A DNA stretch of 40,940 nt. Source: Escherichia phage K30. The DNA is taken from sequence record NC_015719.1; one strand, given 5' to 3'. This document shows, one piece after another, positions 6,548-37,709 of this stretch. Position numbers and translations under genes: made by a program. Every line of letters starts with the position of its first letter. Positions within the stretch are counted from its first letter, which is position 1. The notes beneath the pieces are model-generated. The model had not been told where the DNA came from. It worked only from the letters and a program-made list of their open reading frames with translations, and did not search any database.

Positions 6548-6578
6548 ACTCAAGGTCATCGTTCGGTGGCCTTTATGA
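6548..6578 (+). promoter_or_regulatory. RNase III-type processing hairpin (R1.1-like)
   Basis: actcaaggtcatc-gttc-ggtggcctttatga: 9-bp stem with G:U pairs; same conserved flanks as T7 R1.1 (recalled). Confidence 0.6.
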
Positions 6579-6609
6579 ATGTCCCTAACAACCACTCAGG
6601 AGTAACACC

Positions 6610-6786
6610 ATGTATCAGAACACAATCAACTTTGAGCGCAAACGTGAACGTCAGCAGACTGAGGGTTATATCCCTAAGGGCCGCAAGTTGAACAAGACGA
6701 AGCGCGGTGGTGGCATGAAGGGTTCCTTCCGTAATGCGAAGGGCGACAGTGTTGTCAACCAAGAGAAATACTTCGTAGGAGCATAA
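6610..6786 (+). CDS. 1.1: Gene 1.1-like small basic protein
   Basis: 58 aa; shares KGRKLNKTKR with T7 gp1.1 (recalled); GGAG RBS; not in the ORF track because under 60 aa. Confidence 0.6.
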   Translation: MYQNTINFERKRERQQTEGYIPKGRKLNKTKRGGGMKGSFRNAKGDSVVNQEKYFVGA

Positions 6787-6789
6787 CAA

Positions 6790-7056
6790 ATGGCTGAGCA
6801 AACTAAATGGCTGTTCGATGGTAGCACTTCACAGTGGTCACGATTGGGCGCTACCGAACGAAGACTGACGGATGAGACGGGACTACATGTAATCATGACG
6901 TATATCCATTTCAACCGCACAGTTTTACTCTCCGTGTATGAACCAAGACCAGATTATGACGAGGTACTCATAGAGAAATCCTTCAGTCGCTGGTCGATTG
7001 ACTCAGCGTCAGACTGGCTGGCAAAACTCACAGCCGACTACTCAAGTTGGAAGTAA
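6790..7056 (+). CDS. 1.2: Gene 1.2-like protein (candidate host dGTPase inhibitor)
   Basis: 88 aa; position between 1.1 and ligase; weak recalled similarity at the C-terminus (..DW..K..WK). Confidence 0.55.
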   Translation: MAEQTKWLFDGSTSQWSRLGATERRLTDETGLHVIMTYIHFNRTVLLSVYEPRPDYDEVLIEKSFSRWSIDSASDWLAKLTADYSSWK

Positions 7057-7077
7057 TTAGGACACACTATAGGCAGA
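7055..7077 (+). promoter_or_regulatory. Phage RNAP promoter (phi1.3-like), aattaggacacactataggcaga
   Basis: Consensus match; overlaps the gene 1.2 stop. Confidence 0.8.
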
Positions 7078-7110
7078 CTCAAGGTCATCGGATTCCGGTG
7101 GCCTTTATGA
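7077..7110 (+). promoter_or_regulatory. RNase III-type processing hairpin (R1.3-like)
   Basis: actcaaggtcatcgg-att-ccggtggcctttatga; about 11-bp stem. Confidence 0.6.
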
Positions 7111-7156
7111 TTGCTTATTGCACACTAAATAAATACTACACTTCGGAGACATCATC

Positions 7157-8209
7157 ATGATGAACATTACGACTAATCCATATAAAGCCGTTTCATACGT
7201 ACGCTCTGCTATCGAGAAGGCGCTGGAGACTTCCGGTTACCTCATCGCGGACACTAAGCACGATGGTGTACGCGGGAACATTTGCGTAGACAACACGGCC
7301 AACGCAGCGTGGCTAAGCCGGGTCTCAAAGACCATTCCGGCCCTTGAGCACCTCAACGGTTTCGACCAGCGCTGGCAGCAGTTACTGAAAGATGACCGCT
7401 GGATTTTCCCGGATGGCTTCATGCTTGATGGTGAACTCATGGTCAAAGGTGTGGACTTCAACACTGGGTCTGGCCTGCTGCGTACCAAGTGGCTAAAGGC
7501 TACCAACTACGGGTTCGACTTCGGAGGTGTTCCACCACTGAAGGGTAGCAAGGTAGATTTCTGCCTCGACCCTAAGCAACTAAAAGTTGTTCTGTACGAT
7601 ATCATTCCGCTTGACATTATCGAATCCGGTGATGACTACAACGTGATGACCCTCCTCCGCCTTGAGCACGTCAAGGTAGCCTTACCAGTCCTGCAAGACC
7701 ACTTCCCTGAAGTTGAGTGGTGCCTCTCTGAGTCCCATGAAGTTTACGACATGGACGAACTCGATGCGCTGTACCGACAGAAACGAGGAGAAGGTCATGA
7801 AGGTCTGGTGGTTAAGGACCCTCAGGGTATATATAAGCGCGGTAAGAAGTCCGGCTGGTGGAAACTGAAGCCAGAGAATGAGGCTGACGGTGTAGTAGTT
7901 GGTCTCGTGTGGGGCACTCCCGGTAAGGCCAACGAGGGTAAAGTGATTGGCTTCGAGGTTCTCCTTGAGAGTGGTAGAGTGGTTAACGCTACGAACATCT
8001 CACAGGAACTTATGGATGAGTTCACCTCTCGCGTCAAGGAATACACTACCGAGTGTAATGCTAATGAAGCTGGCTGCTGGTATATGAACCCTTACGAGGG
8101 CTGGGCGTGCCAAATCAAGTACATGGAGGAGACTCCAGACGGTTCTCTGCGTCACCCATCGTTCGATAAATGGCGTGGTAGCGAGGCTGACCCAACCATC
8201 AAGATGTAA
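7157..8209 (+). CDS. 1.3: ATP-dependent DNA ligase (T7 gene 1.3)
   Basis: 350 aa; recalled strong similarity to T7 ligase including the adenylation motif region (IKYDGVRG in T7, TKHDGVRG here) and C-terminal ETPDGSLRHPSF. Confidence 0.95.
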   Translation: MMNITTNPYKAVSYVRSAIEKALETSGYLIADTKHDGVRGNICVDNTANAAWLSRVSKTIPALEHLNGFDQRWQQLLKDDRWIFPDGFMLDGELMVKGVDFNTGSGLLRTKWLKATNYGFDFGGVPPLKGSKVDFCLDPKQLKVVLYDIIPLDIIESGDDYNVMTLLRLEHVKVALPVLQDHFPEVEWCLSESHEVYDMDELDALYRQKRGEGHEGLVVKDPQGIYKRGKKSGWWKLKPENEADGVVVGLVWGTPGKANEGKVIGFEVLLESGRVVNATNISQELMDEFTSRVKEYTTECNANEAGCWYMNPYEGWACQIKYMEETPDGSLRHPSFDKWRGSEADPTIKM

Positions 8210-8230
8210 TTAGGACCCACTATAGGAGAC
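8208..8230 (+). promoter_or_regulatory. Phage RNAP promoter, aattaggacccactataggagac
   Basis: Consensus match; overlaps the ligase stop. Confidence 0.8.
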
Positions 8231-8235
8231 ACCAA

Positions 8236-8322
8236 ATGTCTATCGACCTAATTCTAATCATCGTGTTCATCCTCGCGGCTATCGTGTGGTCAATGAACGA
8301 CGAGCCACCTAAAGGAGCATAA
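8236..8322 (+). CDS. Hypothetical 28-aa hydrophobic peptide (MSIDLILIIVFILAAIVWSMNDEPPKGA)
   Basis: Short ORF immediately after a promoter, AGGAGA upstream; single predicted transmembrane segment. Confidence 0.3.
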   Translation: MSIDLILIIVFILAAIVWSMNDEPPKGA

Positions 8323-8325
8323 ACC

Positions 8326-8589
8326 ATGCGCTTACACTTCAATAAATCAAACGGTATCTTCTCGGTTCGCCGGGAAGACCGCAGCACTGTGGTAGCCTCC
8401 GAGCGCCACGGTAAGATTCCACGTATCGGAGACACCTTCGAGCTGGCTCCTCGCGTGCACATCTTGGTTACTCGCGGTCTCTACGAATTGGCTCAGACTA
8501 AGAGCCGTCCTTTCGTACCCGTAGTGGTAACCAAGTGGCCACGCCTTCGTCTATTCTGGGAGCGCATCAAGGAGGTCGTAAATGACTGA
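8326..8589 (+). CDS. 1.6: Gene 1.6-like protein
   Basis: 87 aa; recalled similarity to T7 gp1.6 (MFRLHYNKS...VRRADRS..ASER..KIP...RIKEV); AAAGGAG RBS. Confidence 0.7.
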   Translation: MRLHFNKSNGIFSVRREDRSTVVASERHGKIPRIGDTFELAPRVHILVTRGLYELAQTKSRPFVPVVVTKWPRLRLFWERIKEVVND

Positions 8590-9007
8590 ACATGAAATTC
8601 TAGTGGTGAACCTGCTGGTTGACCAGAATGCTGACCGCCCAGACTCCACGACGTGCTCTGATGGCGTAAAGTGCTACAAGGTAGCGTGCAAGGAGTGTCC
8701 GCTTAATGTCAAAGGAATGACCATTGGGAAGGTGCGTGCAATGCAGGACAGTAAGACTCCAGATGTAGACAATGGTGTCAAGCAGCCAAGTCACTATCAA
8801 CTGTTCGAAGGCGTCGAGGCCATCGAGGTTATTGCTCGAAGCATGACCCAAGAGATGTTCAAAGGGTACTGCCTTGGGAACATCCTCAAGTACCGACTCC
8901 GTGCTGGTAAGAAGTCCGAGCTGGCTACCTTAGAGAAAGACATGGCAAAGGCCGCTTTCTATCTGGAGCTGTATACCAAGCACAAAGGTCTGTGTTATGA
9001 CGCCTAG
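8582..9007 (+). CDS. 1.7: Nucleotide kinase (T7 gene 1.7)
   Basis: 141 aa; C-terminal half matches T7 gp1.7 from memory (PSHY.LF...EAIEVIARSMT.E.FKGYC.GNILKYRLRAGKKSELA.LEKD.AKA.FY.EL); shorter N-terminus than T7. Confidence 0.85.
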   Translation: MTEHEILVVNLLVDQNADRPDSTTCSDGVKCYKVACKECPLNVKGMTIGKVRAMQDSKTPDVDNGVKQPSHYQLFEGVEAIEVIARSMTQEMFKGYCLGNILKYRLRAGKKSELATLEKDMAKAAFYLELYTKHKGLCYDA

Positions 9008-9122
9008 TGAATGGGCAAGAAAGATGTACGAGAAGACGCTCGACCCTGCGTACATCACCATGTATAACATGTGGAAGGAGCGAGAAGATGCAAAAGTTCG
9101 TCGTAACGGTCGAGACAGCTAA
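8997..9122 (+). CDS. 1.8: Gene 1.8-like small protein
   Basis: 41 aa; SEWARKMYEKTLDPAYITMYNMWK resembles T7 gp1.8 SEWCRKMWEETFDDAYIKLYELWK (recalled). Confidence 0.5.
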   Translation: MTPSEWARKMYEKTLDPAYITMYNMWKEREDAKVRRNGRDS

Positions 9123-9237
9123 CGCATCGTATGAACTCCCGGTACACGCTGGGTCTCTTGAGGAGGCCCTCGAAGTTGCCGAGGCAGAGTACGAAGAGTT
9201 AGGCCAAGTGACTCGGGTACGCCCTGATAGTCATTAG
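9088..9237 (+). CDS. 2: Host RNA polymerase inhibitor (T7 gene 2)
   Basis: 49 aa from an internal ATG with AAGGAG RBS; LEEALEVAE...VTRVRP resembles T7 Gp2 (recalled). Confidence 0.7.
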   Translation: MQKFVVTVETANASYELPVHAGSLEEALEVAEAEYEELGQVTRVRPDSH

Positions 9238-9254
9238 GGCACACTATAGGGACA
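9232..9254 (+). promoter_or_regulatory. Phage RNAP promoter (phi2.5-like), cattagggcacactatagggaca
   Basis: Consensus match. Confidence 0.8.
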
Positions 9255-9296
9255 CAGGCTGTCCCTCTTTCTGTTATAAACCAAAGGAGATTCATC

Positions 9297-9992
9297 ATGG
9301 CATTCGCTAAGAAGAAGATTTACACCACCAAGATTGGTACCTGTGAGCCGTACGCTTACTTCAACAAGCCGGACTATGGCGGTGAGGGTTTTGAGAACCC
9401 ACGCGGTACCTACAAAGGTTCCGTAACGTTCAAGAACGAAGACTGTCAGGAGCTGGTAGACCTCATCGTTAAGACCCATGAGGAAAACTACGCTGCTCGT
9501 CTGGAAGCACATGAAGCGAACCCGCCGAAGGTTCAGAAGGGTAAGAAACCTCTGAAGCCGTATGAAGGCGACATGCCATTCTTCGACAATGGTGATGGTA
9601 CAACCACGTTCAACTTCAAGTGCTACGGTTCGTACGAGGACAAGAAAACCGGCGAGACCAAGAAGATTGTTCTGGGTGTAGTTGACGCCAAGGGCAAACG
9701 TATCCAAGATGTTCCAATTATTGGTGGTGGTTCCAAAGTGAAAATTCGCTTCTCTCTGGTACCGTATGGCTGGTCCGCTGTGGCTGGTGCTTCCGTTAAG
9801 TTGCAACTGGAAGGCGTAATGCTGGTCGAACTGGCTACCTTTGGTGGTGGCGAAGACGATTGGGCTGACGAAGCTGTAGAAGGTGGCTATGAAGCTGACG
9901 AATCTCGCAGCCGCAAACCTCAGGAAGACCCGGAAGACTGGTCTGGTGAGGAAGCGGATGAGGGCGAAGCTGAAGAAGACGATGACTTCTAA
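9297..9992 (+). CDS. 2.5: Single-stranded DNA-binding protein (T7 gene 2.5)
   Basis: 231 aa; recalled strong similarity to T7 gp2.5 (EPYAY..KPDYG, KPLKPYEGDMPFFDNGDGTTTF, VPIIGGGSK, acidic C-terminal tail ending DF). Confidence 0.95.
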   Translation: MAFAKKKIYTTKIGTCEPYAYFNKPDYGGEGFENPRGTYKGSVTFKNEDCQELVDLIVKTHEENYAARLEAHEANPPKVQKGKKPLKPYEGDMPFFDNGDGTTTFNFKCYGSYEDKKTGETKKIVLGVVDAKGKRIQDVPIIGGGSKVKIRFSLVPYGWSAVAGASVKLQLEGVMLVELATFGGGEDDWADEAVEGGYEADESRSRKPQEDPEDWSGEEADEGEAEEDDDF

Positions 9993-10441
9993 TGGCTGGC
10001 TACGGAGCCAAAGGGATTCGGAAGGTGGGTGCCTTCCGGTCTGGCCTTGAGGATAAGGTATCCAAGCAGTTAGAATCAAAGGGCGTCACGTTCGACTACG
10101 AATTGTGGCGCATCCCTTACGTTATTCCTGCGAGTGACCACCTTTACACTCCAGACTTCTTGTTACCTAACGGTATCTTCGTGGAGACTAAGGGTCTCTG
10201 GGAAGCCGAGGACCGCAAGAAGCACCTATTGATTCGCGAGCAATACCCGGAGTTAGACATCCGGTTAGTGTTCTCTTCGAGTCGCACTAAGATTTACAAA
10301 GGGTCACCAACCAGTTACGCTGAGTGGTGCGAGAAGCATAACATCTTGTTTGCCGACAAATTGATTCCCGTAGACTGGCTGAAGGAGCCGAAGCGTGATG
10401 TACCGTTCGGCAAGTTCAAACAGAAGAAAGGAGCAAAGTAA
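9992..10441 (+). CDS. 3: Endonuclease I, Holliday junction resolvase (T7 gene 3)
   Basis: 149 aa; N-terminal MAGYGAKGIRKVGAFRSGLEDKVSKQLESKG identical to recalled T7 gp3. Confidence 0.95.
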   Translation: MAGYGAKGIRKVGAFRSGLEDKVSKQLESKGVTFDYELWRIPYVIPASDHLYTPDFLLPNGIFVETKGLWEAEDRKKHLLIREQYPELDIRLVFSSSRTKIYKGSPTSYAEWCEKHNILFADKLIPVDWLKEPKRDVPFGKFKQKKGAK

Positions 10442-10443
10442 GT

Positions 10444-10899
10444 ATGGCTAAGGTTCAATTCACTAAGCGACAGGAGACCTCTCAGATTTTCGTTCACTGC
10501 TCAGCTACCAAGGCGACCATGAATATTGGCGTCCGTGAGATTCGCCAGTGGCACAAGGAGCAGGGCTGGCTGGACGTAGGGTATCACTTCATCATCCGCC
10601 GTGACGGTACCGTTGAGGTAGGTCGAGACCAAGATGCTGTAGGTTCACACGTCAAAGGCTACAACTCGACTTCGGTCGGCGTGTGTTTGGTGGGAGGTAT
10701 CGACGCCAAGGGCAACCCTGAGGCAAACTTCACTCCAGCCCAGATGCAGGCACTGCGTTCACTGTTGGTAGAACTGAAGGTGCAATACGATGGGGCTGTT
10801 CTGATGGCACACCACGATGTAGCACCTAAAGCCTGCCCGAGCTTCGACCTGAAGCGCTGGTGGGAGAAGAATGAACTGGTCACTTCAGACCGTGGGTAA
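10444..10899 (+). CDS. 3.5: Lysozyme / N-acetylmuramoyl-L-alanine amidase, RNAP inhibitor (T7 gene 3.5)
   Basis: 151 aa; recalled near-identity blocks with T7 lysozyme (IFVHCSATK, VREIRQWHKEQGWLDVGYHFII, AHH.VAPKACPSFDLKRWWEKNELVTSDRG). Confidence 0.95.
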   Translation: MAKVQFTKRQETSQIFVHCSATKATMNIGVREIRQWHKEQGWLDVGYHFIIRRDGTVEVGRDQDAVGSHVKGYNSTSVGVCLVGGIDAKGNPEANFTPAQMQALRSLLVELKVQYDGAVLMAHHDVAPKACPSFDLKRWWEKNELVTSDRG

Positions 10900-10900
10900 A

Positions 10901-10923
10901 CATTAGGGCACACTACAGGGAGA
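10901..10923 (+). promoter_or_regulatory. Variant phage promoter (phi4-like), cattagggcacactaCagggaga
   Basis: Consensus match except TACAGGG instead of TATAGGG. Confidence 0.6.
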
Positions 10924-10962
10924 CAATTACGTTTCCCTGTTGTCGCTTGAGGAGATTACTTT

Positions 10963-12897
<1,935 letters not shown>

Positions 12898-12907
12898 GAG
12901 AACCATC

Positions 12908-13117
12908 ATGTTTAAACTCATCGAAACTTTAGGCCGTCTGGTCATCGCGCTGTACATCCGTGAAGCCAAGGCACTGGACAAAGCGTCCAAGGTGGAAGCA
13001 GAAGCAGCCACTAAGCTGGCTAAGGCAGCCGACAAGGCACGTCAGGCATCTCTGGATGCAACCGCAGAGGCAGCGAAAGTTGCACTTAAAGCTCAGAAAC
13101 TTAAGGAGTTCTTCTAA
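12908..13117 (+). CDS. 4.3: Gene 4.3-like protein
   Basis: 69 aa; MFKLIETLGRLVIALY resembles the recalled T7 gp4.3 N-terminus; AGGAGA RBS. Confidence 0.6.
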   Translation: MFKLIETLGRLVIALYIREAKALDKASKVEAEAATKLAKAADKARQASLDATAEAAKVALKAQKLKEFF

Positions 13118-13425
13118 TGACTACCAAAGCTAAATTCCCCGGTAATACCATTCAGCTGTCCGACACTGTAGACCAGTGGGGCCGCAAGGTTCACATCAAC
13201 GTTCGCAACGACAAGGTTACTCTGGTCTACCGCTGGAAGGCTAAGAGCGATAATCGTGCACATACTCAGCGTGTGACACTTGACGATGTTCAAGCAGCTC
13301 GACTACTGGCCTCCGTGGCTGTCGCAGCGACTGTGGCGGTTGGTGAAGATAAGGTGCGTGAGGCTATCCTGAGTAAAGAGGTAGGCTCGACGGCAACCCG
13401 ACTGGCTGAAGCGTCAGAAGCCTAG
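13117..13425 (+). CDS. 4.5: Gene 4.5-like hypothetical protein
   Basis: 102 aa; TAATG overlap with 4.3; call is by position only. Confidence 0.5.
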   Translation: MTTKAKFPGNTIQLSDTVDQWGRKVHINVRNDKVTLVYRWKAKSDNRAHTQRVTLDDVQAARLLASVAVAATVAVGEDKVREAILSKEVGSTATRLAEASEA

Positions 13426-13431
13426 TGATAA

Positions 13432-13467
13432 ACTCAAGGTCATTACTATATGTAGTGGCCTTTATGA
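13432..13467 (+). promoter_or_regulatory. RNase III-type processing hairpin (R4.7-like)
   Basis: actcaaggtcattac-tatat-gtagtggcctttatga; about 11-bp stem. Confidence 0.6.
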
Positions 13468-13500
13468 TTATCATACACAACATATTGAGAGGACATAACC

Positions 13501-13884
13501 ATGCGTAAACCTGAAGAAATCCGTGCAGACATCGAGAAGCTGACCAAAGAGCTGGAAGCTATTAAGGTTCATGAGTCCAGACAGGTTGCTGCTGTTAACA
13601 TCCTGTATAACTTAGGTTGGAAACATGACAACCTTAAGGGTTGGCAGAAGCCTGCTCCGAAGTGTAGCGACTACAAGGCCCCGCTGAAGGCTGGAGAGCT
13701 TGCAACGTTGGAGAAGACTCATTGTATAGGATTATATATCCACAGCGTTGGCAACAAGTTCTCACAGGTGTCTCTCATACGCAACGTAAACATGCGTGGT
13801 GTAGATGTTCTGTCTAGCAGCTTTTTTGTAGAAAACAGTAAGTTGACCGTTCGTCCGCGTGAATACTTCATCGGGCGCCGGTAA
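13501..13884 (+). CDS. 4.7: Gene 4.7-like hypothetical protein
   Basis: 127 aa; GAGAGGA RBS; call is by position only. Confidence 0.5.
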   Translation: MRKPEEIRADIEKLTKELEAIKVHESRQVAAVNILYNLGWKHDNLKGWQKPAPKCSDYKAPLKAGELATLEKTHCIGLYIHSVGNKFSQVSLIRNVNMRGVDVLSSSFFVENSKLTVRPREYFIGRR

Positions 13885-13900
13885 TTAATAGGAGACCACT

Positions 13901-16018: not shown

Positions 16019-16036
16019 TAATACAGGAGATTTACC

Positions 16037-16339
16037 ATGGCTATTACCAAACGTTTTAAAGTTACTTTCGAAGTGACCACCGTAATTGACAGCGAAGCTG
16101 AGAAGAACCTAAGCGAGTCCGTTCTGCGTATTGCACATATGGTTTCCAAAGGTGAGAAGGTGGACAGCTTCAAGCTGGGTTTCCTTGAGGCAGCACTCAA
16201 TGGTGGACCTGACGAAGCAGCTACGTACTGTATCCGACATGGTCTACGTTCATTGGTCAAAGAGGCCTATAACGACCTTTCGTTTAACGAGAAGAAACTT
16301 ATGCGATTCTCCCCGGCAACCGTGAGGGTAACCAAGTGA
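16037..16339 (+). CDS. 5.5: Gene 5.5 protein (H-NS-binding in T7)
   Basis: 100 aa; recalled similarity to T7 gp5.5 (TKRFKV.F.VT.VIDS, RFSPATVR). Confidence 0.8.
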   Translation: MAITKRFKVTFEVTTVIDSEAEKNLSESVLRIAHMVSKGEKVDSFKLGFLEAALNGGPDEAATYCIRHGLRSLVKEAYNDLSFNEKKLMRFSPATVRVTK

Positions 16340-16545
16340 GTGAGTACCTCAAAGTTCTGGCGGCCCTCAAGGGCTGCCCTAAGTCCTTCCAGTCGAACTA
16401 CGTGCGGAACAACGCTACGTTAGTCGCGGAGGCCGCTTCCCGTGGTCACATTTCGTGTCTGACCATGAGTGGTCGTAATGGCGGCGCTTGGGAAATTACC
16501 AGTGCCGGAGTGAGATTCCTTAAGAAACACGGGGGTTGTTTATGA
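16336..16545 (+). CDS. 5.7: Gene 5.7 protein
   Basis: 69 aa; GTG start overlapping the 5.5 stop; recalled near-identity with T7 gp5.7 (CPK.FQSNYVRNNA.LVAEAASRGHISCLT.SGRNGGAWEIT). Confidence 0.8.
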   Translation: MSEYLKVLAALKGCPKSFQSNYVRNNATLVAEAASRGHISCLTMSGRNGGAWEITSAGVRFLKKHGGCL

Positions 16546-16706
16546 GTAACGTCACCATTAGTTCAGACCGCCTTAAATACTTAGAGAGTCGGGACGAAAT
16601 CCTGAGCGCTCTTGAGGCAGGCGGCGTAGATAACTGGGAGTGGTACTCAGAGTCGTTGCAGAAAGCAGGGCTTCTGGATGACGATGAGGAGGAAGACGAT
16701 GAGTAA
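16542..16706 (+). CDS. 5.9: Gene 5.9-like small acidic protein (candidate RecBCD inhibitor)
   Basis: 54 aa, acidic C-terminus; position between 5.7 and 6; call is by synteny. Confidence 0.5.
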   Translation: MSNVTISSDRLKYLESRDEILSALEAGGVDNWEWYSESLQKAGLLDDDEEEDDE

Positions 16707-17604: not shown

Positions 17605-17621
17605 TTCTTATTGTCCTGACC

Positions 17622-17696
17622 ATGGGCTTAGTCGCTCGTGGTCTCTGGATGTTGGTCTTAATTATCAAGCAGATAGTTGAGCATAAAATAGAGTGA
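17622..17696 (+). CDS. Possible 24-aa hydrophobic peptide (gene 6.3 position)
   Basis: Short ORF after gene 6; no clear RBS. Confidence 0.15.
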   Translation: MGLVARGLWMLVLIIKQIVEHKIE

Positions 17697-17697
17697 T

Positions 17698-17746
17698 AAA
17701 CTCATGGGCACAATTAGGACCCACTATAGGGAAGTGCCCATTATGA
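17698..17746 (+). promoter_or_regulatory. RNase III-type hairpin enclosing a phage promoter (R6.5/phi6.5-like)
   Basis: 8-bp stem atgggcac (17704-17711) / gtgcccat (17734-17741) brackets the promoter core; flanks aaactca...ttatga are those of the hairpin family. Confidence 0.55.
17712..17734 (+). promoter_or_regulatory. Phage RNAP promoter (phi6.5-like), aattaggacccactatagggaag
   Basis: Consensus match. Confidence 0.8.
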
Positions 17747-17781
17747 TTATTACTTAAAGATTACTTAAAGAGGAGACTCAA

Positions 17782-18018: not shown

Positions 18019-18029
18019 GGAGATTGATT

Positions 18030-18251: not shown

Positions 18252-18252
18252 C

Positions 18253-18513: not shown

Positions 18514-18524
18514 GGAGGTGACCT

Positions 18525-20132: not shown

Positions 20133-20153
20133 TTAGGGCACACTATAGGGAGA
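20131..20153 (+). promoter_or_regulatory. Phage RNAP promoter (phi9-like), aattagggcacactatagggaga, with 5' leader hairpin
   Basis: Consensus match; transcript begins gggagacc-gctt-ggtttccc (8-bp stem). Confidence 0.85.
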
Positions 20154-20195
20154 CCGCTTGGTTTCCCTCTTAGTCTTAACTTTAAGGAGATTGAA

Positions 20196-22551: not shown

Positions 22552-22568
22552 CGTTAGGAGCTTACAAT

Positions 22569-23147: not shown

Positions 23148-23169
23148 TCAGAAACTTAAGGAGGACCAA

Positions 23170-25545: not shown

Positions 25546-25570
25546 CTGAAGGAATCCTTATGGTGTGCTC

Positions 25571-25593
25571 AATTAGGGCACACTATAGGGAGA
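25571..25593 (+). promoter_or_regulatory. Phage RNAP promoter (phi13-like), aattagggcacactatagggaga
   Basis: Exact consensus match. Confidence 0.85.
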
Positions 25594-25617
25594 CCACACT
25601 AAGAGGGGACTTAAAGC

Positions 25618-26028: not shown

Positions 26029-26030
26029 CT

Positions 26031-28876: not shown

Positions 28877-28892
28877 CCATTAAGGAGACAAC

Positions 28893-31800
28893 ATGAGCTA
28901 CGATAAGTCCAAACCTAGCGATTACGATGGCATCTTCCAGAAGGCAGCAGACTCTCATGGGGTCTCCTATGACCTCCTGCGTAAGTTATCGTTTAACGAA
29001 TCATCCTTCAAACCTAAGGCCGTCTCTAAGACTGGACCTAAGGGCATCATGCAGTTCACCCGCAACACGGCCCGAGCTATGGGCCTTAACGTGACAGATA
29101 GTGACGACGATGGGCGATACAACCCAGAGTTAGCTATTGACGCTGGCGCTAAGCTACTTGCTAGTCTCGTTAAGAAGTACAATGGGGATGAACTTAAAGC
29201 GGCCCTAGCGTACAACCAAGGGGAAGGACCAGCGGGTGCTCCCCAGCTTCAAGCTTATGATAATGGAGACTTCGGGTCTATCTCGGAGGAAGGACGTAAC
29301 TATATGCGCAAGTTGCTGGACGTGGCCAAGAGTCCTCGCTCTGGCGCTCTGGAAGAGTTCGGTGGTATCACCCCAAAGGGTAAAGGGATTCCCGCAGAGG
29401 ATGCCTTCAAGGGCATCTCCAATGCTGGCAAGGTAGGTACCGAACTGCCGGAGTCCCATGGGTTCGACGTTGAGGGTGTAGCTCAGGAAGCACCCAACAC
29501 TCCATACGCTAAGGACTTCTGGGAGAAGACCGGGACGACTATTGAAGAGTACAACTCTCGGTCTACCTTCTTCGGGTTCAGTGATGCTGCAAGTGCTGAG
29601 CTTCAAAACTCTACGCTTGGTATAGCCTTCCGTGCAGCACGAGCTGATGATGGATATGATGTGTTCAAGGACACAATGACCCCGACTCGCTGGAACTCAT
29701 ACGCTCCATCCAAGGAGGACTTACAGAAGCTGCGCGACTCCGGGTTACCTCCGAGTTACTACGGTGTGGTGACTGGTGGTGACGGTGAGAACTGGGACTC
29801 ACTCATTAAGCTGGCCAAGGATAACTTCGAGGCTGACCAACGTGCCGCTGAGGCTGGAACTGGCGCGAAACTCGCTGCTGGTATCGTTGGTGCTGGTGTA
29901 GACCCGCTCAGCTATGTTCCTCTGGTCGGTGTGGCCGGGAAGGGACTCAAGGTGGTCAATAAGGCCTTGCGTGTAGGCGCACAGGCTGGAGCACTCAACG
30001 TTGCCTCTGAGGGAATCCGTACGTCTATCGCTGGCGGTGAGGCTCACTACGCTGATGCAGCACTAGGTGGGTTACTGTTCGGCGCAGGAATGTCGGCTCT
30101 CAGTGATGCTGTGGCCGCTGGTATCCGTAAGGCACGTGGAGTCGACTCTGTGAACGAGTTCGCTGGCCCAGCATTACGAATGGAAGCACGAGAGACTGCC
30201 ATCAACACTGGTGGTCACGACACCTCGACGCTACCTCCAGAGAATTTCTCGTTCGAGCAGAGTCACAGAGGTGTTCCATTTGCTGACCACCCGACCGAAG
30301 AGGGAGCAGTGGTTCTGGCCAATGGTTCCATCCTGAGCGATACCAACCCGCTTAACCCAAGGACTCAACGTGACTTCGCAGAGATTGACCCAGAGCGTGC
30401 AGCTCCCGGTATCAAACTAGGTGGGTTCACTGAGATTGGCCTGAAGACCTTAGGGTCCAAGGATGCTGGTGTTCGTGCAATCGCTCAGGACCTCGTGCGC
30501 TCACCTACAGGGATGCAATCAGGGTCTAGCGGTAAGTTCGGTGCGACAGCTTCGGATATCCACGAGCGACTCCATGCGACTGACCAACGGATGTATAACC
30601 AACTGTATGACGCTGTTGACCGTGCCATGAAGGACCCAGAGTTCTCCGTAGGTGAGCAGAAGATGTCACGCAGAGCCATCCGTCAGGAAGTCTACAAGCG
30701 TGCTGCCTTGGCGATTGAGCGCCCAGAGTTACAGGCTGATTTGACCAAAGGTGAACGTGAGGTGATGGACCTGCTGAAAGAGCACTTCGACACCAAGCGT
30801 GAACTTATGGAGCAGCCGGGTATCTTTGGTAACGCTGACGCCGTGAGCGTCTTCCCCGGCAGTCGTCACAAGGGAACCTACGTACCTAACGTGTACGACA
30901 GGGGAGCTAAGGAGCTGATGACTCAGAAACTGGGTGGACCTGAAGGACTACAACAGGCTATCGCGCAGAGCTGGCTTACCAGTTACCGAGTGAGACCTGA
31001 GGTCAAGGCGCGCGTCGATGAGTACCTTATGGAACTAAACGGCTACAAGTCGGTTGACCAAGTGACACCTGAGGTGGTCCAGAAGCACGCTATGGATAAG
31101 GCGTATGGTATCAGCCACACCGAGGACTTCACAGCATCCAGTGTCATTGATGACAACATCACAGGTCTGGTAGGTATTGAGAACAACTCATTCCTTGAAG
31201 CCCGTAACATGTTTGATAGTGATATCCCGGTTACCTTACCGGATGGGTCAACCTTCAGTGTCAACGACCTGCGGGACTTCGACATGTCACGGATTATCCC
31301 AGCGTACGACCGTCGAGTTAACGGTGATATCTCCATAATGGGAGGTAGTGGTAAGACCACGAAGCAGCTCAAGGATGAAATCATGGCGTTAGACAAACGG
31401 GCCGAACGTAAGGGACAGCTTAAGGGTGAAGTGGAAGCACTGAAGGATACCGTTAAGATTCTCACTGGACGTGCTCGACGCAACAATGACACAGCCTTCG
31501 AGACAGCTATGCGTTCCCTGAATGACCTAGCGTTCTTCGCTAAGAACTTCTATATGGGTCCACAGAACCTCACCGAGATTGCTGGGATGCTGGCTAAGGG
31601 TAACGTCAAGGCGATGCTCCACGGTATCCCAACGCTGCGAGACCTTGCCACCAGAACCTCTCCGGTGTCCGGTAGTGAACTCCGTGAACTACATGGGGCG
31701 CTGTTCGGTAAGGAACTCGACCAGTTAATACGTCCGGGACGTGAGGACATCGTACAGCGAATCCGTGAGGCTTCCGATACCAGTGGAGCCATGTCGTCAG

Positions 31801-32858
31801 TCATTGGCACCATCAAGTTTGGTACTCAGGAGCTGTCAGCCCGTTCTCCTTGGACCAAGATGCTTAATGGTACGGCTAACTACATTCTGGACACTGCCCG
31901 TCAGGGTGTGCTAGGTGATGTGGCTGGTGCTGCCCTCGGTGGCAAGGGTTCCAAGTTTGGCAAAGAGAACTTCCTTAAAGCTGCCTCTATTAGTCCTGAG
32001 CAGTGGAAGGGAATCAAGCAGCTTTTTGTCGACCATGCGACTCGTGATGCTAACGGTCAGTTCTCCATCAAGGACAAGAAGGCTTTCAGTCAGGACCCGA
32101 GGGCGATGGACCTGTGGCGTCTTGCTGATAAGGTTGCCGATGAAACCATGCTGAGACCACACAAGGTATCCCAGCAGGATTCCAAGGCATACGGTGCTGG
32201 TGTTAAGATGGCTATGCAGTTCAAGAACTTCACCATCAAATCACTAAACGCCAAGTTCATTCGGTCCTTCTATGAGGGTTACAAGAACAACCGTGCTATC
32301 GACATGGCGTTGACCCACGTGTTGTCTCTTGGTATCGCCGGGACTTACTTTGCGATGCAGGCCCACGTGAAGGCTTACGGTCTCCAAGAGTCTCAGCGTA
32401 AGGACTACCTGAAGAAAGCCTTGAACCCGACCATGCTGGGATACGCAGCGTTGACTCGAAGTTCCCACACTGGTGCCCCGCTGTCCATCGTCTCGATGAT
32501 TGCTGGTGCCGCTGGGTTCCAAGACGCCAACATGCTGCGTTCCACCATCTTACCGAAGGAGGAACAGTTCCAGAAGAAAGACGGAGCGTCCAAAGGTCGC
32601 GCTGAGTCGAGCAATCTTGCGGGTAACTTGGGGTCTCAGGTTCCAGCGCTAGGTTACGTAGGGAACGTTATTGCGACCGCTAAGAACGCCTACGGTGTTG
32701 CTACAGCTCCCAACAAGCCGACCGAGCGTGACTACATGACTGGCCTGATGAACTCCACCAAAGAGCTTGTGCCTAATGACCCACTGACCCAACAGCTCAT
32801 CATGAAAATTTATGAGGCTAACGGGGTCACCATCAAGCAGCAGCCGAAGCCTAACTAA
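28893..32858 (+). CDS. 16: Internal virion protein D with N-terminal lytic transglycosylase domain (T7 gene 16)
   Basis: 1321 aa; N-terminus carries a soluble-lytic-transglycosylase-like block (GPKGIMQFTRNTARAMG...ALAYNQGEG); synteny. Confidence 0.95.
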   Translation: MSYDKSKPSDYDGIFQKAADSHGVSYDLLRKLSFNESSFKPKAVSKTGPKGIMQFTRNTARAMGLNVTDSDDDGRYNPELAIDAGAKLLASLVKKYNGDELKAALAYNQGEGPAGAPQLQAYDNGDFGSISEEGRNYMRKLLDVAKSPRSGALEEFGGITPKGKGIPAEDAFKGISNAGKVGTELPESHGFDVEGVAQEAPNTPYAKDFWEKTGTTIEEYNSRSTFFGFSDAASAELQNSTLGIAFRAARADDGYDVFKDTMTPTRWNSYAPSKEDLQKLRDSGLPPSYYGVVTGGDGENWDSLIKLAKDNFEADQRAAEAGTGAKLAAGIVGAGVDPLSYVPLVGVAGKGLKVVNKALRVGAQAGALNVASEGIRTSIAGGEAHYADAALGGLLFGAGMSALSDAVAAGIRKARGVDSVNEFAGPALRMEARETAINTGGHDTSTLPPENFSFEQSHRGVPFADHPTEEGAVVLANGSILSDTNPLNPRTQRDFAEIDPERAAPGIKLGGFTEIGLKTLGSKDAGVRAIAQDLVRSPTGMQSGSSGKFGATASDIHERLHATDQRMYNQLYDAVDRAMKDPEFSVGEQKMSRRAIRQEVYKRAALAIERPELQADLTKGEREVMDLLKEHFDTKRELMEQPGIFGNADAVSVFPGSRHKGTYVPNVYDRGAKELMTQKLGGPEGLQQAIAQSWLTSYRVRPEVKARVDEYLMELNGYKSVDQVTPEVVQKHAMDKAYGISHTEDFTASSVIDDNITGLVGIENNSFLEARNMFDSDIPVTLPDGSTFSVNDLRDFDMSRIIPAYDRRVNGDISIMGGSGKTTKQLKDEIMALDKRAERKGQLKGEVEALKDTVKILTGRARRNNDTAFETAMRSLNDLAFFAKNFYMGPQNLTEIAGMLAKGNVKAMLHGIPTLRDLATRTSPVSGSELRELHGALFGKELDQLIRPGREDIVQRIREASDTSGAMSSVIGTIKFGTQELSARSPWTKMLNGTANYILDTARQGVLGDVAGAALGGKGSKFGKENFLKAASISPEQWKGIKQLFVDHATRDANGQFSIKDKKAFSQDPRAMDLWRLADKVADETMLRPHKVSQQDSKAYGAGVKMAMQFKNFTIKSLNAKFIRSFYEGYKNNRAIDMALTHVLSLGIAGTYFAMQAHVKAYGLQESQRKDYLKKALNPTMLGYAALTRSSHTGAPLSIVSMIAGAAGFQDANMLRSTILPKEEQFQKKDGASKGRAESSNLAGNLGSQVPALGYVGNVIATAKNAYGVATAPNKPTERDYMTGLMNSTKELVPNDPLTQQLIMKIYEANGVTIKQQPKPN

Positions 32859-32879
32859 TTAGGACACACTATAGGGAGA
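32857..32879 (+). promoter_or_regulatory. Phage RNAP promoter (phi17-like), aattaggacacactatagggaga, with 5' leader hairpin
   Basis: Consensus match; transcript begins gggagacc-gatt-ggtttccc. Confidence 0.85.
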
Positions 32880-32919
32880 CCGATTGGTTTCCCTCCTCAT
32901 TCAACTAAAGGAGGTCACA

Positions 32920-35631
32920 ATGGACCAAGACATTAAAACAGTCATTCAGTACCCAGTAGGGGCCACTGAGTTCGACATCCCGTTCGACTACCTGTCCCGC
33001 AAGTTTGTCCGTGTGTCGCTGGTGACAGGCGACAACCGAAGACTGCTGAGTAACATCACTGAGTACCGCTACGTGTCTAAGACCAGAGTGAAGCTCCTTG
33101 TGGAGACCGCTGGGTTCGACCGTGTGGAAATCCGTAGGTTCACCTCGGCATCTGAGCGAATCGTTGACTTCAGTGATGGCTCGGTTCTCCGTGCGGCTGA
33201 CCTTAACGTGTCTCAGATACAGTCGGCACATATCGCAGAGGAAGCACGTGATGCGGCACTTATGGCAATGCCTCAGGATGATGTCGGTAACCTTGATGCA
33301 CGTAACCGTAGAATCGTGCGGCTGGCACCGGGCATTGATAGTACAGATGCAATCAATAAGAACCAACTGGACACCACCTTAGGTGAGGCTGGTGGTATTC
33401 TGTCACAAGTCAAGGATACCCAGAAGGACATTCAGAACTACATTCAGAAGTTCGGCGATGACACCGCTATGGTTCGTGGAGTAAATTGGGTGTATAACGG
33501 TGGGTCTGCCATTGGTGGAGAGACCTCCTTTATCATCGACAAGTCAGCGCCAGTGTTCGCCGTACCATACATTGAGGTAAACGGAAGCCGTCAGTTCCGA
33601 GACTGGCAGTACGAGTATGACCCTGCAACCAAGCGTGTCACTCTGGTTAAACCTCTGGAGGCTGGAGACTTTGTTGTATGCCTCACTACCGAGAATAAGT
33701 TACCTTTAGAAGACCTGCTGGCTAGTACAGGAGGTGCCGATTCCATTGGTAAGGCTGGAGGTGGTACAGTTCAGGATGGTCTGGATGCAACGATACATGG
33801 TACTGATGTCCACCGAGACACTGTGACTCCCGGTAAACTGGACACACTCCTTGTGTACAATGGGACCAACGCTGGGCGCGACCTACGTGGCCATGAGTTC
33901 GTAATGCCCCACGGCACATTCTCCGCGACTCGCATCTTGAGAACTCGTGGTATCTCAGCGGCTGAATCTAAGTACACTGGGTTCACTTGGCGCGGACAGG
34001 GTAGTTCGTTCACCAAGTTGGTCCACCCTGCGACTGGTGGTCAGGGTGATATTGCATTCATGGACTACCTGAAGGATGTTACGATGTCTGGGTTCATGAT
34101 GGACAACACCGCGCTAGGTCAGGGGACTTCCAATCAGGATACCCGTAACGGTCAGTTCTGGATTCGACATTCGGTTGACTCCTACTTCGACGACCTGCGC
34201 TTCGCTGGTGCTGACGCCCTTACGTTCTGTCTGGACCACTGTAAGAACATCTACTCGACAAACCTCAAGGTAGACTATCAGCTGCGCTATCCGACTGGTA
34301 CAGGTAAGTCCCCGCTAATAGTTGGTGACTACTCGGAGCAGTGCATGTTCATCGGCGGCTACGTTAAGACCGTGTCACCTGACGGAACCATAAAGTATGC
34401 TGGTGACCTCGCAGATAACGACCAAGCGGATGATACCAAATGGGCGTTCATTAACCTGTACGGATTGACGTTTGAACAGAAGCCTAACTCTAACGCCTGT
34501 ATGTGGCAAGAAGGGGAGGGTGCACCATCCAACGCTCACTTCATCGGTATGAACTACATCAACAACGGTGTAGGTCATGGTGTGTCTGAGAAAGCTGTGG
34601 GTACTGACATCGGGTCTACCTTCCGTCAGGCTCAGGTTCGTGCTGTGTGGAACCGTGCTGAGTACATCTCAATCGGCAGTCACTTCATTAACAACGATGC
34701 CAAGTATCCTGCTGGCACTGGTGGCGCAGGTACTGCGGCTGCTGGTGGTGTTCATAATGACAACGCCAAGTTCACCTCTCTGGTTGGTGACTACTTCCGT
34801 GGTAACTTCGCGGATTATACAGACTACACAGGGGCATCTGGTGTTAACCCGGAGAACTCAACCCACATCACCAACGCAAAGTTGACATCCATCATTCGTA
34901 CATCGTCCTCCAGTACCTCTCAGCATTTAGCCATTGTGAACTGCCAGTTAACTTCTGCGGGTCGTATTAGCGGCGGCGGTAACGGGAGACTCCACGTGTC
35001 CGTTGTGGCATCTCACTGCGTCGGGCCTCTGGGGCAGTTTGGTCACGGACAGTCCGAGACGTACCTTGACGTCATAAACTCTACGTTCACTGCCGCTGGT
35101 AGCACTGAGGCTATGATTACCCAGTCAGGTGTTGGTAATATCTCGTTCGCTAACTCCACGTTCCGTGATTATATCCGTGTGGTAGATGGCTCGCATACCC
35201 GTGTTACCTTCCGTAACTGTACGTTCTACACTTGTACTTTCACTGAGGACGACCGAAAAGCTCGCTACGTTAACTGCCGATTTATCTCGTGCACTGACGC
35301 TCCAGACTCCTTCGGCCTCAACTTTGCGGCAGACTCTCTGGACCGCCCTAGCTCACTTCGAGTTAACGTAACGTTAACTGCTGGCGGCAGCTATACGTTC
35401 CCGGCTTGGGTACTTCAGGGTCGTGGTGCTTACTTCATCAACGTGGGTGGTAATGGTGCCAACCTTCCTGCCTGCGCTGGTATCATTGGTAAGAGTAGCG
35501 CGACTGGTAGTGGTGTATGGACCCCTCAGTGGGAAAGCACTCCTAGTAGTATTGTTGTATCTTGGCCATCCAACGGATACATTACTGTTACGGCCACAAC
35601 TGCTGGCAACTACACAATCGGCGTCCACTAA
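32920..35631 (+). CDS. 17: Tail fibre / tailspike with T7 gp17-like N-terminal anchor and beta-helix (depolymerase-like) C-terminal region
   Basis: N-terminal 150 aa resemble T7 gp17 ([48 protein letters not shown]); C-terminus has repetitive N.TF / NCTFYTCTF segments typical of parallel beta-helix enzymes; start at ATG 32920 with AAGGAGGT RBS. Confidence 0.9.
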
Positions 35632-35644
35632 TAAGGAGAACCAC

Positions 35645-37198
35645 ATGTTAGACAAATTGAATCAGCCGAAAGGCTCAACCATTGGTGTGCTCAAGGATGG
35701 GCGCACCACCCAAGAGGCCATTGACGAACTCACTAATGATGTAACAGGAAGTATCACAACTACCCGGTATGCATCGAGTGCTTCCCAGGCGCTGTTCCCG
35801 AAGCTCATTGACAAGATGACTGCGTATCGGCATGGTGTCTCTGGATTCCAAGACAAGTTTCGAATCTACGGGTATGGCTCCTCTGTAGGCAATGGGGCAA
35901 CGATTGGTGGAAACTCCTCGCCAAATACCCCAGTAGCAAAATTCTTTGAGCACTTCCAGAGGACGGTCAACAAGGCTGGAATCTACCCATTCGAATACTC
36001 GAACAAGTCGGTGGATGGTTCCAACATCAACGATTTCCTCAACCGGGAGTGGCCTGCGACTGTCGCCACTGGTGTCTTCCCGGACCTAGCGGTTTTCGCT
36101 TACGGTATGAATGACTTCCCCTCGGCGCAGTATAATGCTGGGATGACCTTCGGGGCCAACGGTTTCAAACAGAGACTTCGCAATGCAATACAGAAGGTTC
36201 GAGACGCTGGCGGAGATGTAGTTCTCCTGACCACCCCACACCCAAACATTGAGGAATACTCGTGGGAACTCCCGTCAAGTATAGACATGGTGTGGCCCCA
36301 GTTTGCTGCCAAACCCGTGGCTGGTGACGTTCTTATTCCACCAGTGTCACAATCAAATGTGTCCTTCGACTTCATGGGCAAACGCATCACTCAGGGTGTT
36401 CGCTTCCTGAGAGGTAACGATGCGATGCGTGAGGTTGCTGTGGAGATGGGTTGCGTCTTGATTGACGTTGAGAAATACTGGTTCGAGGCCGTTGGTAAGT
36501 ATGGGAACGTACTACTGTTCGACCGCGTGCCAGCAATGCAGACAGTGCACCCTAACCTACTGGGTCACCAGCAGTCGTACTGGCGGGCAATCGAAGAGTT
36601 CTTCAACAATGTGGATTCCTCTGGATGGATTGCTCCAGACGCTAAGTTGAACCAGACGCTGGATGTTGGCGGTAACGCCCTGAACCCCGCGAAGATGGAA
36701 GCTGATGTCGACCTTCAGGCCAACGGCATCCGTCAGCGTGCATTCGTGCGCCGGGATAAGTCTGGCCGTGTCATGGAGGAGCTGACGCAGGACAGCAGGG
36801 TCAAGCGCACATCCTACACGGTGTCAGACCCTACAGTATCAGCTCCGGGATATAGCCTAACATGGGACGAGTGGTTTACCCGCACCAAGGGATTATTCAC
36901 CAGTGGGGAGACTTTGGGCATCCCTGTAAATAACCGCACCGAAGGTCGACTATTAGTCACAGCGTGGATTTCAGGCCAGACTGGCTGGACCCAGCTTGAG
37001 GACTACTTAGTCTCTAACCGTGAGGGTGTTGTATTGGTCTCCAAGATTGGCTCTTTAGATAATACTCCACCGGCTGGTGGTACAGGGACCAACGGTCAGC
37101 GCCTGTTCACCGTGTCCACCTCTGCGAACAATGTCGTGGTTAATATCCTATCGGATAACGCCACTGTGAAGTTCAAACTGGACACCTTTGGGGCATAA
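35645..37198 (+). CDS. Second receptor-binding protein candidate with SGNH/GDSL-hydrolase-like motifs (putative esterase tailspike)
   Basis: 517 aa from ATG 35645 with TAAGGAGAA RBS; motifs YGYGSS, YGMNDF, VHPNLLGH in the order expected for an SGNH fold; sits between gene 17 and the holin. Confidence 0.6.
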   Translation: MLDKLNQPKGSTIGVLKDGRTTQEAIDELTNDVTGSITTTRYASSASQALFPKLIDKMTAYRHGVSGFQDKFRIYGYGSSVGNGATIGGNSSPNTPVAKFFEHFQRTVNKAGIYPFEYSNKSVDGSNINDFLNREWPATVATGVFPDLAVFAYGMNDFPSAQYNAGMTFGANGFKQRLRNAIQKVRDAGGDVVLLTTPHPNIEEYSWELPSSIDMVWPQFAAKPVAGDVLIPPVSQSNVSFDFMGKRITQGVRFLRGNDAMREVAVEMGCVLIDVEKYWFEAVGKYGNVLLFDRVPAMQTVHPNLLGHQQSYWRAIEEFFNNVDSSGWIAPDAKLNQTLDVGGNALNPAKMEADVDLQANGIRQRAFVRRDKSGRVMEELTQDSRVKRTSYTVSDPTVSAPGYSLTWDEWFTRTKGLFTSGETLGIPVNNRTEGRLLVTAWISGQTGWTQLEDYLVSNREGVVLVSKIGSLDNTPPAGGTGTNGQRLFTVSTSANNVVVNILSDNATVKFKLDTFGA

Positions 37199-37207
37199 GG
37201 AGGTACC

Positions 37208-37411
37208 ATGTTGTCCCTAGACTTCAACAACGAAGTTATCAAGGCGGCTCCCATTGCGGGGGTCGCTGGGGCTGACGGTGTAGCGAGGCTCTTCTGGGGC
37301 CTCTCACTCAACGAGTGGTTCTACGTCGCGGCAATCGCCTACACAGTGGTTCAGATTGGTGCCAAGGTAGTCGACAAAATCATTGACTGGAAGAAAGCAA
37401 ATAAGGAGTAA
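37208..37411 (+). CDS. 17.5: Class II holin (T7 gene 17.5)
   Basis: 67 aa; recalled near-identity to T7 gp17.5 (MLSLDFNNE.IKAAPI, LSLNEWFYVAAIAYTVVQIGAKVVDK.IDWKKANKE). Confidence 0.9.
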   Translation: MLSLDFNNEVIKAAPIAGVAGADGVARLFWGLSLNEWFYVAAIAYTVVQIGAKVVDKIIDWKKANKE

Positions 37412-37414
37412 CAT

Positions 37415-37672
37415 ATGGACCTGATTAAGTTCCTCGAAATGTTAGACACTGAGATGGCTCAGCAGATGCTCATGGACCTGAAGAATCCAGAGAAGCGGAC
37501 CCCTCAGTTGTACAACGCCATTGGTAAACTACTGGAGCGTCACAAGTTCCAAATCTCTAAGCTAACCCCTGACGTTAACATCTTGGGTGGACTGGCTGAG
37601 GGTCTGGAGGCTTACAACTCCAAGGTGGGTGCTGATGGTCTTACAGACGACGATACGTTCACCCTACAGTGA
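37415..37672 (+). CDS. 18: Terminase small subunit (T7 gene 18)
   Basis: 85 aa; recalled similarity to T7 gp18 (FLEMLDT.MAQ.ML.DL, PQLYNAI.KLL.RHKFQI.KL.PDV.ILGGLA, GLTDDD..TLQ). Confidence 0.9.
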   Translation: MDLIKFLEMLDTEMAQQMLMDLKNPEKRTPQLYNAIGKLLERHKFQISKLTPDVNILGGLAEGLEAYNSKVGADGLTDDDTFTLQ

Positions 37673-37675
37673 TAT

Positions 37676-37709
37676 ACTCAAGGTACTACTATATGTAGTG
37701 CCTTTATGA
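37676..37709 (+). promoter_or_regulatory. RNase III-type processing hairpin (R18.5-like)
   Basis: actcaaggtactac-tatat-gtagtgcctttatga; about 10-bp stem. Confidence 0.6.

Follow-up and report, generated by a model that had tools for sequence, protein, structure and literature searches.

RNase III sites have been known as an element type of the phages T7 and T3 since 1983. The T7 sites, R0.3 to R18.5 (Dunn and Studier 1983), have the same conserved flanks, ACUCAAGG...CCUUUAUGA, as the hairpins considered here, and one of them, R1.1, serves the Nicholson laboratory as its model substrate (PMC1540722). For substrates of this kind it has been described how internal loops restrict RNase III to a single cut, leaving 3' ends protected by hairpins, together with a rule for antideterminants, that is, inhibitory base pairs in the RNase III proximal and distal boxes (PMC1540722). 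A preprint that cites Dunn and Studier 1983 names R3.8, R4.7, R6.5 and R18.5 as strong T7 cleavage sites (bioRxiv 10.1101/106799), and the T3 record AJ318471 annotates ten RNase III stem_loops, of which seven are canonical. Here we describe a family of five hairpins in the 40,940-base genome of Escherichia phage K30 (NC_015719.1), the whole of which we refer to as the window and in whose coordinates all positions are given. Sequence comparison identifies the five as the K11-group orthologues of the T7 and T3 sites R1.1, R1.3, R4.7, R6.5 and R18.5. The tip of two of these hairpins, 12-15 bases long, recurs in the terminal repeat (TR) of the genome, close to its right end.

Overall, we are strongly inclined to the view that the hairpins are RNase III site orthologues, that the copy of the tip in the TR is E1, one member of a conserved pair of elements, E1 and E2, and that the sequence module probably came to be shared between these two contexts through copying at the level of DNA. 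The presence of the hairpins in this genome is ordinary, as the family belongs to the textbook picture of the T7 group and is already known. The occurrence of the tip module in a conserved TR pair across several genera is a real and modestly interesting side observation.

Hairpins at five syntenic gene junctions

Four of the five elements match the pattern CTCAAGG-N(8-38)-CCTTTATGA exactly, all on the + strand (6549-6578, 7078-7110, 13433-13467 and 37677-37709), compared with zero matches expected in the window from 100 shuffles. The fifth, at 17698-17746, has the degenerate flanks ACTCATGG...CCATTATGA and contains a complete phage promoter in its loop. The original prediction had placed intergenic elements at these five loci, starting at 6548, 7077, 13432, 17698 and 37676, and all five are real: each is intergenic, lies on the + strand facing the direction of transcription, and folds with a z-score between -3.7 and -5.0 (minimum-energy and centroid folds). 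The flanks that were ascribed to all five elements are exact in the four and degenerate in the last, and the prefix A(C/A) proposed to precede ACTCAAGG was a loose description, the actual prefixes being AT, AG, AA, AA and AT. The stems with G:U pairs that had been described are borne out by RNA folding. All five hairpins adopt a common fold in which a lower stem of 6-9 bp is followed by a 4/5-nt internal loop and an upper stem of 8-11 bp, with several G:U pairs and with energies of -16.9 to -23.0 kcal/mol. The lower stem, the asymmetric internal loop and the upper stem amount in every case to about two helical turns.

The junctions occupied by the hairpins are syntenic with named T7 and T3 sites. 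They correspond to 1.05/1.1, 1.2/1.3, 4.5/4.7, 6.3/6.5 and 18/18.5, as judged from the open reading frames, from the K11 and T3 annotation, and from Pfam matches to gp4.5 (PF17574), gp18 (PF11123) and Rz. Several of the hairpins are closely combined with promoters. A copy of the phi1.3 promoter (7054-7076) overlaps the 5' arm of the R1.3 lower stem, and the start sites of phi1.1 and phi1.3 fall inside the 5' arms of the lower stems of R1.1 and R1.3. The loop of R6.5 holds phi6.5, as it does in T7, and the T3 annotation likewise has a promoter inside the R6.5 stem_loop.

The likeness to T7 thus extends from the junctions to the architecture of two helices with a 4/5-nt internal loop. The window differs from T7 in that the K11-group tips of R4.7 and R18.5 read UACUAUAUGUAGUG, whereas the T7 loops are AAAG and CAGA, in that a covariance model (below) picked up nothing in it equivalent to canonical R0.5 or R1, and in that its R0.3 candidate is branched; the window sites are known from their sequence and fold.

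We compared the five window elements with the AJ318471 stem_loops and with the T7 sequences around the cut coordinates of Dunn and Studier (1983). Both the T7 sites and the T3 stem_loops labelled 'RNase III recognition site' can be aligned with them base for base, and the family consensus is ...ACUCAAGGUC-tip-GUGGCCUUUAU^GAUUAUCA..., where ^ is the cut. When 22 canonical sites, drawn from the window, K11, T7 and T3, are aligned, seven columns are invariant and ten nearly so, and the homology extends to the arms ACUCAAGG/CCUUUAUGA of the mapped T7 sites. The consensus structure of these 22 sites (RNAalifold) has 7 + 10 bp, with compensatory changes on both sides at 13 of the 17 pairs.

A scan of the whole window at Rfam gathering thresholds matched no family. 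T7 RNase III sites are absent from Rfam, and we therefore built our own covariance model from an alignment of T7, T3, K11 and window sites that contained no R6.5 site. This model recovers the left-out R6.5 in all four genomes (40-48 bits). With filters off, the five elements, R6.5 included, are exactly what it finds in the window, each of them on the + strand and at 37-64 bits; the only other match has an E-value of 6.4, which is at chance level, and lies on the - strand. The T3 stem_loops, which align with the elements of the window, reach 44-65 bits under this model. Applied to 46 further loci from relatives, the model yields 85 sites, 40 of them distinct, in which 96.3% of pair cells are standard, as against 28-51% when the partners are slid, and the covariation score of these sites is reached by none of 500 shuffles. 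Scores on the reverse strand are near zero (for T3 R4.7, 12.9 compared with 63 bits), and so the signal belongs to RNA and not to a DNA palindrome. The resemblance to T7 sites such as R1.1 on which the original prediction had relied is accordingly upheld by the alignment, the shared junctions, the two-helix architecture, the compensatory changes and the recovery of left-out sites by the model.

If the hairpins work as their T7 counterparts do, host RNase III would bind about two turns of stacked helix, and the internal loop would allow one phosphodiester cut only, on its 3' side. Alignment puts the predicted cuts at CCUUUAU^GA, after positions 6576, 7108, 13465, 17744 and 37707. Cutting would divide polycistronic transcripts into defined mRNAs, and the upstream mRNA would keep the hairpin at its 3' end, where it would stand in the way of 3' exonucleases. 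At R6.5 both arms are present in read-through transcripts only; those starting from phi6.5 would escape cutting because they have the 3' arm only. Cleavage in this phage is in this way to be expected from homology to T7, the homology, fold and covariation being computed here.

Paired elements at the end of the terminal repeat

The K11 record annotates a terminal repeat at 1-180 and a 'concatemeric junction' at 180-188, and homology to this annotation predicts the physical TR of the window (Table 1). Directly after the predicted TR end stands ATCTGTT, at 179-185 and 40726-40732. This sequence is invariant in all collected relatives, and we take it to be the class II pause or termination signal of the T7 concatemer junction. 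Within the TR, E1 has the sequence TACTATATGTAGTGG, which is exact in the hairpin at 13432 and has one mismatch in that at 37676; no further match with three or fewer mismatches was found in the window beyond the TR copies and these two hairpins. The related element E2, which had not been noticed in the original prediction, follows E1 in both copies of the TR.

E1 and E2 occupy fixed positions. In 58 of 60 unique T7-like TR sequences the E1 core starts 59 (58-60) nt, and the E2 core 27 (26) nt, before the last base of the TR, which sets the two 32-33 nt apart, and T7 and T3 are the only members of this collection from which the elements are absent. Across 42 unique Przondovirus TRs the E2 core ACTATATGTTGAT is invariant and E1 is nearly so, with a variable spacer between these conserved islands.

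The TR copy is not an RNase III hairpin. The original prediction had one hairpin recurring in the terminal region, with the loop core of two of them at 121-135. The core is indeed there, at 119-133 and again in the right-end copy at 40666-40680, but only the 15-nt tip is concerned. On reading the sequence, the copy at 119-133 has no RNase III family flanks, the region around it has no significant fold (z -1.7 and -0.3), and there is no covariance-model match to it even at E = 10 with filters off. On these grounds, unrelated flanks, no fold and no model match, we rejected a vestigial RNase III site in the TR. Conservation of the TR copy in relatives, which had been put forward as a check, is confirmed, since E1 forms one of the conserved islands in the 42 Przondovirus TRs, mostly with one mismatch.

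Fixed position and conservation together argue that E1 and E2 are DNA elements under selection, and as conserved cis elements they lie at a fixed place beside the terminase cut site in the concatemer junction. With E2 beginning 27 nt short of the mature right end, the two elements are most likely part of the signal region for DNA maturation or packaging. The setting resembles that of the T7 and T3 junction signals (pacB, pacC and the presumed class II pause): E1 and E2 fall within the last 60 nt of the TR and are directly followed by the conserved right end ...CTCTGTRTCCCT and ATCTGTT, where the K11 record marks the concatemeric junction. The difference is that T7 and T3 have no ACTATATGT-type elements. 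In T7, gp18 recognises pacB and gp19 cuts pacC (PMC9860248). That E1 and E2 may be the pacB of the phages that bear them is a positional guess, because elements of this type are missing from T7 and T3, where pac has been mapped.

The extent of the repeat is itself of note. The ends of the window are duplicated exactly over 393 bp (1-393 = 40548-40940), with a copy of the phiOL promoter (334-356) inside, whereas the 180-bp terminal repeat and junction annotated in K11 would by homology make the physical repeat in the window only 1-178. The last ~215 bases of the record may lie past the true right end, or the phage may have an unusually long repeat. Paired elements of the CACTA-N4-TAG type, ~18-30 nt apart, are also seen in metagenomic contigs from IMG/VR of ~38-55 kb (L244, L214/L218, L287/L290, L289, L200 and L210). 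They often have a G-rich spacer, and in L244 the pair stands near the contig end (CCACTAGATGTAGTG-GGTGGGGGGACATTGGGG-CACTATGTGTAG). A pair of the E1/E2 type may be a widespread terminal signal beyond the Studiervirinae.

A module common to hairpin tips and terminal repeats

The quasi-palindrome ACTA-N4-TAGT is found both in TR elements and in RNase III hairpin tips in several Studiervirinae genera. The stretch held in common is 12-15 nt long, and within the TR it falls in the part that is conserved best. The comparison covered two tip variants and about six independent clades, and both contexts hold the module in the window, in Yersinia phage fPS-50, in Erwinia phage L1, in the clade of contig L127 and Salmonella phage BSP161 (L293), and in contig 2706795353. 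In most Przondovirus genomes E1 is TACTATATGTTGTGG, one mismatch from the hairpin tip, and it is an A variant of this element that gives the exact match in the window and in contig L174. In fPS-50 (Helsettvirus) the TR elements are CACTATATGTAGTGG and TACTATATGTAGTCC, and the tips are TACTATATGTAGTGG in R18.5 and TACCATATGTAGTGG in R4.7, with no other matches genome-wide. The second variant provides the R18.5 tip CACTACATCTAGTGG of L127 and BSP161, and in these genomes the TR element E1 is the exact 15-nt reverse complement of that tip. The two variants occur together in contig 2706795353, where the TR has one element of each, R4.7 has one variant and R18.5 the other, and in Erwinia phage L1, where the second variant lies in direct orientation in the TR and the first in R18.5. 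The T7 R18.5 tip, CCACTACAGATAGTGG, forms the same stem. In T3, by contrast with the window, the tips are unrelated to the TR module and the TR is without clear E1 and E2. In the literature on Przondovirus terminal repeats, T7-like transcriptomes and packaging we found no description of the module, and matches to the motif string were unrelated primers.

A T7-like clade (L202, L205, L284, L294 and L295) presents a further arrangement. Its hairpins keep the tip CCACTACATCTAGTGG, and their upper-stem arms are GAGAGG...TCTC and not CAAGG...CCTT, with GAGTGATAGAC...GATTATTACTCAC as the lower stem. The tip is conserved in this clade and the arms are changed.

Some simple origins for the motif were considered and set aside. 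Reading ACTATATGT as a decayed phage promoter core (CACTATAGG) was rejected: the same motif is present despite the different promoters of K11 (CACTATAGGGAGA), fPS-50 (CACTATTGGGAGA) and L1 (CACTAACGGGAGA), and is thus independent of the genus promoter consensus, and its spacing to the upstream GGG is inconsistent. An accident specific to the window was likewise rejected, as E1 occurs with one mismatch in relatives and there are exact matches in other genera. Ongoing gene conversion is unsupported, the T/A difference between E1 and the tip being stable across most of the 42 Przondovirus sequences.

That hairpin tips are held in common with a conserved DNA-level element of the TR could be taken as a sign that the hairpins, too, act as DNA (as cruciforms, protein-binding palindromes, or replication or recombination signals) or as transcription terminators, and are not RNase III substrates. 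In DNA they are imperfect palindromes of ~50 bp, and R1.1 and R1.3 adjoin promoters in the region where replication of T7 and T3 has its primary origin (a rep_origin feature of the T3 record). This explanation is nonetheless very hard to sustain. Many of the stem pairs are G:U and would be mismatches in DNA, the covariation passes through G:U intermediates, the signal is specific to one strand, every site faces the direction of transcription, and the orthologous T7 sites are documented cleavage sites. A terminator is further disfavoured by the sequence after the stems, in which we see no U-run. As to why the module is shared, the cause we favour, as the most economical, is copying at the DNA level, with template switching or conversion between short sequences that form hairpins and with no common function. 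It is favoured because the GATG/CATC loop inversions between orthologous elements are what template switching in quasi-palindromes produces, and because the tip of an RNase III hairpin would tolerate any pairing sequence; promoters occupy it in R6.5 and R13.

The module might instead be a genuine cis element, read by one factor such as the small terminase gp18, or a means of RNA pairing between the R18.5 or R4.7 tip and the TR on read-through late transcripts, with tip and TR contexts co-evolving, direct in K11-like phages and fPS-50 and inverted in the L127/BSP161 clade. In at least four clades the module does occupy both contexts, and it does so in two sequence variants; E1 and E2 keep a fixed 32-nt spacing beside the cut site, gp18 is the protein that recognises pacB in T7 (PMC9860248), and its gene, 18, ends at R18.5, which abuts the stop codon. 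Moreover, the TATG variant reads as self-complementary in RNA with G:U pairs, and the exact reverse complement in L127 and BSP161 suggests that complementarity and not identity was kept. An inverted copy, however, yields complementarity automatically, so this last point does not discriminate between copying and function. T7 R18.5 has a CACTA/TAGTG tip with no TR elements and T3 has neither, most Przondovirus E1 and E2 carry TTG in place of TAG, which breaks both the palindrome and perfect complementarity, the TR transcript is without significant structure, and the sample contains few independent clades. A functional role is for these reasons improbable, though it deserves more weight than mere coincidence of AT-rich, palindrome-like sequence with no common origin, to which we would give only a slight chance. 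The latter could draw on the facts that K11 itself matches at 12 of 15 positions only, that 0.87 chance matches are expected in the window at three or fewer mismatches, that the exact match hangs on one T-to-A polymorphism in E1 that is rare among Przondovirus, and that many unrelated contigs contain these 14- and 15-mers about as often as chance predicts. It does not readily account for the window and fPS-50, in which the only genome-wide matches with two or fewer mismatches are the other hairpin tip and the TR elements, nor for the recurrence of 12-15 nt matches in separate genera and in a second variant (fPS-50, L127, BSP161 and 2706795353).

Several observations weigh against the combined explanation that we prefer, of RNase III sites, an element pair for packaging, and DNA-level copying. 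The stability of the T/A difference between E1 and the tip means that ongoing homogenisation is not evident. The link between the two contexts is frequent and not universal, several genomes retaining the tip module with degenerate TR elements, a pattern that also counts against function. A packaging role has to contend with the absence of E1 and E2 from T7 and T3, as no phages other than these two have mapped pac signals. For the hairpins, we found no experimental transcript-end mapping for K11-like phages in the literature. The predicted cuts rest on the T7 cut coordinates of Dunn and Studier 1983, which were checked for consistency with the alignment only; neither the T7 RefSeq nor the V01146 record annotates RNase III features.

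Further candidate sites, genome context and significance

Three additional candidate hairpins, which were absent from the original prediction, match T3 non-canonical sites in position and form (Table 1). The R0.3-type candidate has a branched insertion of ~55 nt at its tip in place of a simple tip, and its match to the model is weak and is obtained with default filters only; at the same place K11 (L003) has a simple RNase III-type hairpin (1091-1143, 33.5 bits). The R3.8-type candidate matches T3 R3.8 in both sequence and position, and the arrangement of the R13-type candidate is that of R13 in T3 and T7.

Table 1. Hairpins and terminal-repeat elements of the window, with covariance-model scores and RNA folds where available.
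Feature	Position	Strand	Model score	Fold (kcal/mol; z)	Description
Predicted physical TR	1..178	.			ends ...CTCTGTATCCCT; by homology to K11 annotation
E1, left copy	119..133	+			identical to R4.7 tip TACTATATGTAGTGG
E2, left copy	151..165	+			TACTATATGTTGATC; related to E1
Candidate R0.3-type site	976..1083	+	21 bits	z -4.1	upstream of gene 0.3; same lower stem and internal loop
R1.1 orthologue	6538..6589	+	64 bits	-16.9; z -3.7	between gene 1.05 with phi1.1 promoter and gene 1.1; 9-bp upper stem, loop GUUC
R1.3 orthologue	7067..7121	+	60.8 bits	-22.4; z -4.8	between gene 1.2 and ligase gene 1.3
Candidate R3.8-type hairpin	10915..10940	+		z -5.6	5' end of phi3.8 transcript, GGGAGAC...GUUUCCC
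R4.7 orthologue	13422..13478	+	62.5 bits	-19.8; z -4.3	between gene 4.5 (PF17574) and gene 4.7; 11-bp upper stem, tip TACTATATGTAGTGG
R6.5 orthologue	17690..17757	+	37-40 bits, E ~1e-6, though left out of model	z -4.2	phi6.5 promoter (17713-17735) inside loop, as in T3 and T7
Candidate R13-type hairpin	25555..25591	+		-30.8; z -7.0	phi13 promoter sequence forms 3' arm
R18.5 orthologue	37666..37720	+	60.8 bits	-23.0; z -5.0	between gene 18 (small terminase, PF11123) and gene 18.5 (Rz); 10-bp upper stem, tip TACTATATGTAGTGC
E1, right copy	40666..40680	+			TACTATATGTAGTGG
E2, right copy	40698..40712	+			in right copy of TR

An 8-kb piece of the window has ~90% nucleotide identity to KP32, K11 and several hundred related phages, and by its sequence relationships the window is the complete genome of a K11-like Klebsiella podovirus of the genus Przondovirus. 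IMG/VR lists it as IMGVR_UViG_651703039_000001. Its left end is of T7 type (TCTCACAG), and the K11-type phage promoter AATTAGGGCACACTATAGGGAGA is present in about a dozen copies. Just downstream of phiOL, at 402-449, there are three tandem 12-nt units (ACTATAGGTCTA / ACTATAAGACTA / ACTATAGGTCTA), each of which holds the promoter core ACTATAGG. The phi2.5, phi3.8, phi9 and phi17 transcripts start with short 5' hairpins of the form GGGAGACC-loop-GGTTTCCCTC (9245-9268, 10915-10940, 20147-20169 and 32873-32895), which resemble the stem-loop of the T7 phi10 leader.

The hairpins matter mainly for annotation, as the records of K11-group phages, including that of K11 itself (EU734173), leave the sites unmarked. 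By homology to T7 they would fix the boundaries of mRNAs from early, DNA-metabolism and late genes and the stability of their 3' ends, and the engineering of therapeutic Klebsiella phages should respect them. If the module shared by hairpin tips and TR were functional, it would point to a packaging recognition signal, which is poorly defined outside T7 and T3, and could tie RNA processing or the expression of terminase to this signal. In many Studiervirinae, though not in T7 or T3, the maturation of genomes and concatemers would then be coupled to the processing of RNA or to the expression of genes 18-19.

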